Shown here: positions 21,464 to 22,029 of the stretch, one piece after another
Position numbering within the stretch: the first letter of the stretch is position 1
How the letters are laid out: each line of letters opens with the position of its first letter
Source of the DNA: Escherichia coli
GTDB taxonomy: Bacteria; Pseudomonadota; Gammaproteobacteria; Enterobacterales; Enterobacteriaceae
Length of the DNA: 64,000 bases
Assembly: GCF_030013595.1 (NCBI RefSeq)
Contig: NZ_CP122768.1
Reading direction: 5' to 3' (one strand)
The notes under the pieces: generated by a model
Database searches by the model: none
What the model was told of the DNA's origin: nothing
Seen by the model: only the letters and a program-made list of their open reading frames with translations
Program-made: the position numbers and the translations under genes

Positions 21464-21781
21464 CTATTTTTTCTCAGAGCTCATATTGTAATAGGTGGTA
21501 TAAATAGAGATTGATTTCTGACATGCTTCAAGAAATTGCTGCGGAGTCATCCCGAGCCTTGCTTGCTCTGTAGTAAGGAATCTCTGTAAGAATTCATTCC
21601 CACCTGGCATGTTTGTAGATTCTTGGAATATTGCCATTTGTTTGATTGCACCACACATACCAGCCATTTTAGAAGCTATCATGAGGCCTTGTATTTCATC
21701 AAAACTGCTATCGTCTGATTTTGTTTCTGCGTTAGCTATGCTCGAGAGACACAGGAGCAATAGGATAGCGATACGTTTCAT
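21464..21781 (-). CDS. Hypothetical small secreted/periplasmic protein, co-oriented downstream of mnt-like gene
   Basis: 105 aa with signal peptide (MKRIAILLLLCLSSIANA); start overlaps mnt-like stop (ATGA). Confidence 0.5.
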   Translation of the reverse strand: MKRIAILLLLCLSSIANAETKSDDSSFDEIQGLMIASKMAGMCGAIKQMAIFQESTNMPGGNEFLQRFLTTEQARLGMTPQQFLEACQKSISIYTTYYNMSSEKK

Positions 21782-22029
21782 TTTTCACCATTGCCATGCA
21801 TACATTTTAACTTCTCAACATCATGCTCAAGCTCTATCAGTCGCGATGCTATAGTTGCAAGATCTAGTGCTTGAATGTGTTTGTTTTTTTCGGTCCATGC
21901 TTCAAGTGCTGCGACCATCTCAGCATTTAATGAACGAGAATTAGCCTCAGCCAGTTCAATAAGACGTTCCTTTATCTCTACAGGAAGCCTCAGATTCACT
22001 TGAGGGTTTTTGTACTTACGATCAGACAT
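21778..22029 (-). CDS. mnt: Mnt-like ribbon-helix-helix repressor
   Basis: 83 aa (same as P22 Mnt); N-terminal RHH motif (NLRLPVEIKERLIELAEANSRSLNAEMV); divergent from arc-ant as in P22 immI. Confidence 0.7.
   Translation of the reverse strand: MSDRKYKNPQVNLRLPVEIKERLIELAEANSRSLNAEMVAALEAWTEKNKHIQALDLATIASRLIELEHDVEKLKCMHGNGEK

Follow-up and report, generated by a model that had tools for sequence, protein, structure and literature searches.

Spackle (Sp, gp61.3) of phage T4, produced as a signal-peptide precursor of about 97 amino acids (aa), acts in superinfection exclusion as a periplasmic inhibitor of the gp5 tail lysozyme. In phage P22, SieA interferes with the gp16/gp20 conduit and thereby prevents the delivery of DNA (PMC10883804). 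The interval running from gene 16 to the tailspike gene has been named the "ant moron" (Villafane et al. 2008, PMC2629481), and is already known as a fast-changing slot for variable cargo. In this work, we describe the content of this slot in a 64,000-nucleotide (nt) stretch of the Escherichia coli contig NZ_CP122768.1 (the window), where a mnt-like repressor gene is followed, on the same strand, by a 105-aa open reading frame (ORF), orf105. What is new here is the protein family to which orf105 belongs, an uncharacterised family of wide distribution on mobile elements, with sharp sequence conservation and a well-defined predicted structure. We propose, as a reading for which we consider the prospects evenly balanced, that orf105 is an accessory "moron" gene of a P22-type ant moron, docked on the 3' end of mnt and serving envelope protection of the lysogen.

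The gene pair and its control region include the following features, with coordinates referring to the window:

21464-21781, minus strand: orf105, 105 aa, from the ORF listing.
21728-21781, minus strand: signal peptide codons of orf105, MKRIAILLLLCLSSIANA, with a signal peptidase I (SPase I) cut predicted between ANA and E from sequence and hydropathy.
21464-21727, minus strand: mature domain and stop codon of orf105, 87 aa, 9.8 kDa, isoelectric point 5.0; predicted three-helix bundle, with Cys43, Cys87 and the FQESTNMPGGNEFLQRFLTTEQARLG motif.
21778-21812, minus strand: conserved 3' end of mnt, ...ATG(T/C)ATGGnAAnGGTGAAAAATGA, carrying the Shine-Dalgarno sequence and the ATGA overlap; mosaic junction.
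21778-22029, minus strand: mnt-like ribbon-helix-helix (RHH) repressor gene, 83 aa (Pfam Arc; RefSeq "Arc family DNA-binding protein").
22058-22086, minus strand: Pmnt-like sigma-70 promoter, TTGATA-17-TATCCT, from a pattern scan; its position relative to mnt parallels that of P22 Pmnt.
22076-22104, plus strand: divergent Pant-like promoter, TTGACT-17-TACTAT, predicted to drive arc-ant, from the same scan; parallels P22 Pant.
22062-22125, no strand: two inverted repeats, 22062-22079/22083-22100 and 22101-22109/22117-22125, from a repeat search, spanning both promoters.

The first-pass annotation had described a Mnt-like repressor gene overlapping by 4 nt, and co-transcribed with, an ORF bearing a clear signal peptide. 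The repressor is confirmed by a match to Pfam Arc (PF03869) well above threshold (40.2 bits, cut-off 20.4, E 3e-10), as well as by synteny with the P22 immI region, mnt being divergent from arc-ant within the gene 16-tailspike interval, with promoters and operators recognized at pattern level only; identity to P22 Mnt is 31%. By analogy with P22, the inverted repeats are candidate Arc/Mnt operators, corresponding to Oarc and Omnt, and the mnt-like product is a putative repressor of Pant, maintaining lysogeny. The overlap, too, is confirmed by coordinates and sequence: positions 21778-21781 read TCAT on the plus strand, hence ATGA on the minus strand, where the TGA of mnt overlaps the ATG of orf105. 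A Shine-Dalgarno sequence, GGTGA (21785-21789), lies 5' of this ATG, within the mnt 3' end. Since an in-frame stop is found one codon upstream, the ATG is the earliest possible start of orf105, with no alternative. The overlap is kept in all of the 22 close IMG/VR loci and in the O104:H4 strain described below. A pattern scan of the minus strand detected no promoter- or terminator-like site within or between the two genes (21464-22029): judging from these features, co-transcription with mnt is the simplest reading, and we consider co-expression of the two genes in lysogens to be rather likely. A promoter of orf105 located inside mnt was rejected on the basis of the same scan.

Comparison with the O104:H4 allele, 76% identical, yields a ratio of nonsynonymous to synonymous substitutions (dN/dS) of 0.165 (dN 0.17, dS 1.03) which, together with conservation of the family, indicates that orf105 is a real gene under purifying selection. 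Its product matches phrog_19844 over residues 1-105 of 105 (E 1.1e-69); this unannotated PHROGs v4 entry is the sole database entry for the family. The N-terminus can be divided into MKR / IAILLLLCLSSIA / ANA, followed by E (ETKSDD after MKRIAILLLLCLSSIANA), and features a basic n-region, a 13-residue hydrophobic core and an AxA site, thus combining the charged n-region, the h-region of 10-15 residues and the cleavage motif of Sec/SPase I substrates; the Kyte-Doolittle mean of the h-region is 2.8 over 11 residues. A hydrophobic N-terminal leader is shared by 67 out of 67 diverse family members, and in the GenBank entry of phage Kapi1 a homologue 47% identical to orf105 bears the DeepTMHMM note "signal 1-22". 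The signal peptide described by the first-pass annotation is, in other words, supported by sequence, hydropathy and relatives alike. Judging from its sequence, the protein is almost certainly exported, and we regard its anatomy and export, taken together, as highly probable. The possibility of a lipoprotein, processed by SPase II, was also considered and rejected: the LLLC string has an unfit Leu at -1, and lipobox-like strings occur in only 2 of the 67 relatives.

The extent of the family was evaluated by a HMMER profile search against 1.84 billion cluster representatives, which resulted in 265 cluster representatives at 50% identity with E<=1e-3 and 177 with E<=1e-10, nearly all about 100 aa long. 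The family therefore extends well beyond enteric phages, and is wider than the phrog_19844 entry. Alignment of 67 relatives, 30-50% identical to the window protein, highlights seven invariant residues (K38, G41, C43, F52, E72, R75 and C87) and the core AKxxGxCGxxxQMxxFQxxTKMxGGDEFxxRFxxTEAARLG...C...Y; exactly two cysteines are found in the domain in 65 of these sequences. AlphaFold2, run on the mature 87 residues with the family alignment, predicts three helices (mature residues 6-38, 43-58 and 62-85) with a predicted local distance difference test (pLDDT) score of 93.9 and a predicted template modelling (pTM) score of 0.78. In the model, the conserved motif FQxxTKMxGGDEFxxRFxxTEAARLG corresponds to the end of helix 1, a loop and helix 2, and the two cysteines lie on helices 1 and 3, presumably at heights compatible with a disulfide bond. 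The resemblance of PGG(D/N)EF (residues 56-61; 21599-21616, minus strand) to the GGDEF signature of diguanylate cyclases is judged coincidental: an assignment of this kind was rejected, the string being a loop in an 87-aa helical bundle with no Pfam GGDEF match.

No family was assigned by Pfam, NCBIfam or PADLOC scans of orf105, nor by Pfam scans of the 67 relatives. Searching PDB sequences with the family profile produced nothing under E 0.8, Foldseek comparison of the model to PDB had a best E of 1.6, and tblastn with orf105 found no match in a plasmid collection. In all sources, family members are named "hypothetical protein".

The informative part of the linkage between orf105 and mnt is a short conserved segment. 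The last 35 nt or so of mnt, ...ATGTATGGCAAnGGTGAAAAATGA, encode ...M(Y/H)G(N/K)GEK and are conserved across unrelated mnt alleles. In the alignment, the junction is shared by the window, four further loci (L012, L017, L018 and L025), Kapi1 and, in part, CUS-3; the mnt sequences upstream and the cargo downstream differ. Four Mnt alleles, with a mutual identity of about 33-49% (33-38% to the window's), run through the same ATGA into identical orf105 sequences, and the junction is used by other cargo as well, namely Kapi1_062 and a second mnt in CUS-3. BLAST breakpoints fall in the window at 21791 (CUS-3) and 21801 (S. Kent 1-2-1). A conserved junction with differing flanks indicates that the mnt 3' end is a mosaic boundary, doubling as the ribosome-binding site of the docked gene; cargo supplied in this way with a ribosome-binding site needs no promoter. 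This argues that co-expression with mnt is built into the slot and is not special to orf105, and makes the junction a clean example of cargo swapping into a lysogen-expressed transcript without bringing its own promoter.

The first-pass annotation had taken P22 mnt to be monocistronic and had considered the present arrangement unusual; the former view appears shaky, and the latter is not supported. In the P22 RefSeq record the mnt terminator (14212-14234) is located downstream of orf59a, and our pattern scan finds the same hairpin, along with a weak one of five pairs astride the mnt stop: P22 mnt, as annotated, is therefore not strictly monocistronic. Four-nt overlaps are routine, the P22 record alone containing 14 on the same strand, so that the overlap by itself carries little information. 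The arrangement rather represents one variant of the published ant moron, as may be seen from the genes which follow mnt on the same strand in related elements:

SEN22: nothing; a HicA-like toxin is found in the slot.
P22: orf59a, then sieA.
CUS-3: a second mnt of a different allele, in tandem with the first (the two at L072 2210-2739), and three ORFs.
Kapi1: a 69-aa ORF whose start overlaps mnt by ATGA, with two genes for secreted proteins after it.
The window: orf105.
O104:H4 2011C-3493 (L004 4493-5566): orf104 (72% identical to orf105, with the same ATGA overlap), followed by a lipoprotein of 161 aa without Pfam match.

In P22, sieA lies just beyond orf59a and has a promoter of its own according to the phage record. 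One of the two secreted proteins of Kapi1 is the orf105 homologue mentioned above. The second mnt of CUS-3 takes the docking position held by orf105 in the window, and the mnt-orf104-lipoprotein order of O104:H4 resembles a three-gene, lysogen-expressed envelope cassette.

Among the 224 E. coli genomes matching the 1.1-kb mnt region, 53 contain orf105 itself, which corresponds to about 1% of the complete E. coli genomes (53 out of 5426); only 2 of 50,697 phage records contain it. Carriers include porcine enterotoxigenic E. coli (ETEC), O104:H4 and isolates of the avian pathogenic E. coli (APEC) type. Related loci were searched with a profile built from an 18-sequence alignment, and nearby RHH genes in IMG/VR loci were called with a custom hidden Markov model from 9 seed sequences. 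As the 53 IMG/VR loci are redundant, only the four Mnt alleles, a siphovirus-type group and a Kapi1-type group count as independent observations.

The siphovirus-type L005-L007, from metagenomes, and L033-L035, from IMG/VR, carry an Arc-domain gene of 142-170 aa, its N-terminal domain sharing about 40% identity with Mnt of the window, and, 57-109 nt further downstream, a relative (43-60% identical). Upstream of the Arc-domain gene the pattern scan detected a promoter-like site, and between this gene and the relative it found no promoter- or terminator-like site. In L005-L007 the Arc-domain gene is transcribed away from a small Arc-like gene and from antirepressor genes of the Bro-N/P22_AR_C and pRha types. 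Together with the secreted-protein homologue, they form an immI-like module (about 3700-6330) which interrupts a siphovirus-type genome between its tail genes and its tape-measure gene, much as immI is set within the late operon of P22. L033-L035 have this Arc-domain gene as well, along with a small RHH gene in divergent orientation. In about 15 Kapi1-type loci the relative lies on the mnt strand, 0.4-3 kb downstream. The association with Mnt/Arc genes is thus real in two phage morphotypes, and it is not obligatory. The remaining viral loci, about 13, with a G+C content of 52-64% in all but one, have no nearby RHH gene, and the relative is usually alone and opposed to the flanking operon: examples are found between baseplate genes, pointing against the operon (L036, L054), and in the vicinity of recombination genes and cI-like repressors (L037, L040, L062). 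Long metagenome or genome contigs place the relative beside a P4-type integrase and AlpA (L070, L071) or within an island resembling a satellite, with VapE and capsid genes (L068); in one case (L069) the surroundings look chromosomal. GC-rich prophages of the Pseudomonas type and environmental or marine metagenome contigs also carry members. Such varied contexts indicate that the family is a general cargo of mobile elements. orf105 shows the traits of moron, or lysogenic-conversion, cargo, namely variable presence, location on the strand opposite to the late genes and an atypical G+C content (39.9%, as compared to 49.5% for the whole window).

The wider neighbourhood could be placed by comparison with the chromosome of E. 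coli UMNF18, 99.9% identical to the 1.1-kb stretch around mnt-orf105. In the matched region, the RefSeq annotation lists DNA ejection genes, a Panacea-domain gene, two hypotheticals, two Arc-family genes, Ant and the tailspike, with the host genes ybhB, bioA and bioB next beyond the latter: this order identifies the region as the right end of a P22-like (Lederbergvirus-type) prophage. The P22 immI order, from gene 16 to mnt, the divergent arc, a candidate sar-like RNA, ant and the tailspike gene, is also present in the window, whose other features are:

17325-19430, plus strand: gene 16 homologue.
20006-20455, plus strand: SocA/Panacea antitoxin-domain gene (Pfam PF13274, E 2e-24).
20460-20879, plus strand: 139-aa ORF, with its ATG at 20460, directly after the SocA/Panacea gene.
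20881-20904, both strands: bidirectional terminator-like hairpin, AAAACCCACCGTCAGGTGGGTTTT, from pattern scan and sequence reading; the first strong one downstream on the minus strand.
20924-21127, minus strand: unannotated 67-aa ORF (orf67), with an N-terminal hydrophobic/transmembrane helix and a CxxC...CxxC zinc ribbon; weak Pfam and NCBIfam zinc-ribbon matches.
21266-21454, plus strand: 62-aa coiled-coil ORF (orf62; phrog_7586, E 7e-43), with a weak XhlA-like match.
22134-22280, plus strand: arc-like repressor gene, 48 aa, divergent partner of mnt (Pfam Arc, 25.1 bits; RefSeq annotation).
22280-22346, minus strand: candidate sar-like antisense RNA, exactly between arc and ant (full-length match to the Rfam RF00262 model; position as P22 sar).
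22347-23276, plus strand: ant antirepressor gene, putative target of Mnt control (Pfam P22_AR_N, E 7e-45; P22_AR_C, E 5e-30).
23377-25272, plus strand: tailspike gene.

The sar-like RNA scores 29.3 bits (E 0.0057), under the RF00262 gathering score of 43; a diverged version of the P22 antisense control of ant is probably retained here. The 139-aa ORF, without annotation in the UMNF18 RefSeq record, has weak matches only (PADLOC NsnC, E 9e-6; NCBIfam MAG6450, E 0.03); with the SocA/Panacea gene it may form a pair, within the ant moron, of the Panacea toxin-antitoxin type or with a defence role. orf67 shares its strand with mnt-orf105, lies just upstream of the terminator-like hairpin at 20881-20904, and could be the distal gene of the mnt-orf105 transcript. 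orf62 is convergent with orf105, with 9 bp between the two stop codons, so that any RNA reading through from mnt-orf105 would be antisense to orf62.

Taken together, the evidence suggests the following course of events. Transcription would start from the Pmnt-like promoter (22086-22058), set back-to-back with the Pant-like one within the palindromes. Having no promoter of its own, orf105 would be translated by termination-reinitiation coupled to mnt (GGTGA-N3-ATGA), at a low constitutive level, whenever Mnt is made, hence in the lysogen. The precursor would be exported by Sec and cut after Ala18, and DsbA would then form a Cys43-Cys87 disulfide in the periplasm, the expected product being a soluble, acidic protein of 9.8 kDa. 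There, by attaching to some conserved component of the periplasm, whether this belongs to the host or to the machinery of an incoming phage or toxin, it may stop superinfection at a periplasmic step. A role at the envelope of the lysogen is a reasonable inference. It is favored, as a protective one, by the presence of sieA in the P22 slot, by the toxin-antitoxin or defence-like neighbours, by the cargo positions of relatives in satellites and prophages, and by the lack of P22-type sieA, for which a phmmer search with P22 SieA, one of the three SieA sequence types known (PMC10883804), as query found nothing in the window and in all fetched loci. That the role is specifically one of exclusion or defence is a more tentative proposal. 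Considerably more speculative, and in our view rather doubtful, is the idea of a new class of soluble periplasmic exclusion or defence proteins, in which a disulfide-locked three-helix bundle of about 10 kDa would bind, through its invariant loop-helix motif, a conserved periplasmic component on which genome entry of many phage types depends, repeated hitch-hiking on Mnt/Arc modules timing exclusion with the silencing of the antirepressor.

Several observations weigh against the proposed role and expression. The promoters were called as consensus matches occurring at background rate (4 sites, as compared to 3.8 expected), the gap between the Shine-Dalgarno sequence and the ATG is short, 3 nt, and the pattern scan found no intrinsic terminator after the orf105 stop. 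The text of a study on Kapi1 lysogens (PMC12922286) reports mnt (L002 3073-3309) to be under the RNA-seq detection threshold and gives no RNA-seq value for Kapi1_059, the orf105 homologue; expression driven by Pmnt may accordingly be very low, which raises a question about the strength of Pmnt-type promoters in P22-like prophages of E. coli. In E. coli OkiPb01711 (H55, NZ_AP042673.1 3137595-3137913), the match to orf105 is 319 bp long instead of 318 and no coding sequence is annotated, the gene being probably frameshifted in this one genome of the 53. PADLOC-DB 2.0 contains no family matching orf105 at E<=0.1, and no literature was found on any family member by accession, PHROG identifier or Kapi1 locus tag. 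Moreover, the family spans unrelated injection machineries, which makes a P22-specific, SieA-like target unlikely: a conserved component of the host periplasm, or an enzyme class of wide occurrence, is a more probable partner of the conserved motif, which could equally represent a ligand or enzyme-inhibitor site.

One alternative explanation, which we regard as unlikely, is that orf105 is an orphan periplasmic immunity or inhibitor protein, directed against a lysozyme, a transglycosylase, an amidase of type VI secretion systems (T6SS) or a bacteriocin, and helping the lysogen in competition with other bacteria instead of against phages. The protein is small, soluble, periplasmic and probably disulfide-bonded, its conserved polar motif would suit binding to an active site, the family is spread over many proteobacterial mobile elements, and Ivy, MliC/PliC, LprI and Tai-type proteins provide precedents. 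On the other hand, orf105 has no match, by Pfam, sequence or fold, to lysozyme inhibitors or T6SS immunity proteins, and no effector gene is adjacent. It is quite unlikely, in our opinion, that the protein is a lysogenic-conversion factor without any defence role, altering the physiology of the host or its interactions, as in envelope stress, colonisation or virulence. Such a function would fit a prophage cargo expressed with the maintenance repressor and found in pathogenic lineages (porcine ETEC, O104:H4, APEC-type), as are known in the Bor, Lom and SodC-type morons; occurrence in environmental and marine contigs and in GC-rich Pseudomonas-type phages, however, points to a generic bacterial or phage target rather than to an animal host, and the neighbours resemble toxin-antitoxin or defence genes, not virulence genes.

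A role in the lytic cycle of the phage itself, in periplasmic lysis timing or in DNA entry or exit, with a merely positional linkage to mnt, appears improbable. P22 Pmnt is active during infection too, and the convergent orf62 has its weak XhlA-like match; nevertheless, orf105 lies on the strand opposite to the late operon, is absent from most P22-like phages, and has relatives in satellites and islands where lysis and virion genes are lacking in the vicinity. Its strand, and the occurrence of homologues in P4-like islands of this kind, also show that orf105 is not a structural gene, an outcome which the first-pass annotation had named as one that would overturn its proposal had it been otherwise. 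That orf105 is a chance or untranslated ORF is effectively refuted: short length and lack of database annotation are all that speaks for it, and they are opposed by the low dN/dS (0.15-0.2), the seven residues invariant over 67 sequences, the high-confidence fold and the PHROG family.

Should envelope protection by orf105 prove true, it would be a rare case of a soluble, single-gene exclusion factor acting in the periplasm in temperate phages of Gram-negative bacteria; most of those known are membrane proteins or lipoproteins. It would also provide a function for a family of hundreds of sequence clusters carried by prophages and satellites, including those of ETEC and of the O104:H4 outbreak lineage. 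If no such role exists, orf105 is one more among the many described variants of the ant moron.

The window holds an apparently complete immI set (mnt, arc, the candidate sar-like RNA and ant), and its slot is like that of P22, which may host mnt-orf59a, sieA or hkcC (PMC2629481), in interval, strand, variable cargo of unknown function and expected expression in the prophage. It differs in that orf105 is unrelated to the P22-type orf59a, sieA and hkcC, is fused to mnt by the ATGA, orf59a being about 100 nt away from mnt, and encodes an exported soluble protein. SieA, 162-164 aa long, spans the inner membrane three times, lacks a signal peptide, is expressed from a promoter of its own and is specific for the P22-like ejection proteins gp16 and gp20 (PMC10883804). 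The two share slot, envelope location and a hypothesised block of DNA entry, but the orf105 product is expected to be soluble once cleaved, and its family also occurs in non-P22 phages. Homology to SieA was rejected, phmmer with the P22 protein finding nothing and orf105 having a hydrophobic segment at its N-terminus only; homology to Spackle was likewise rejected (hhalign probability 4.8%). Ivy, MliC/PliC, LprI/DUF1311 and Tai/Rap proteins are small, Sec-exported and often disulfide-bonded periplasmic binders, traits also predicted for the orf105 product. Among the known systems, T4 Spackle is the closest analogue of orf105 in size, location and logic.

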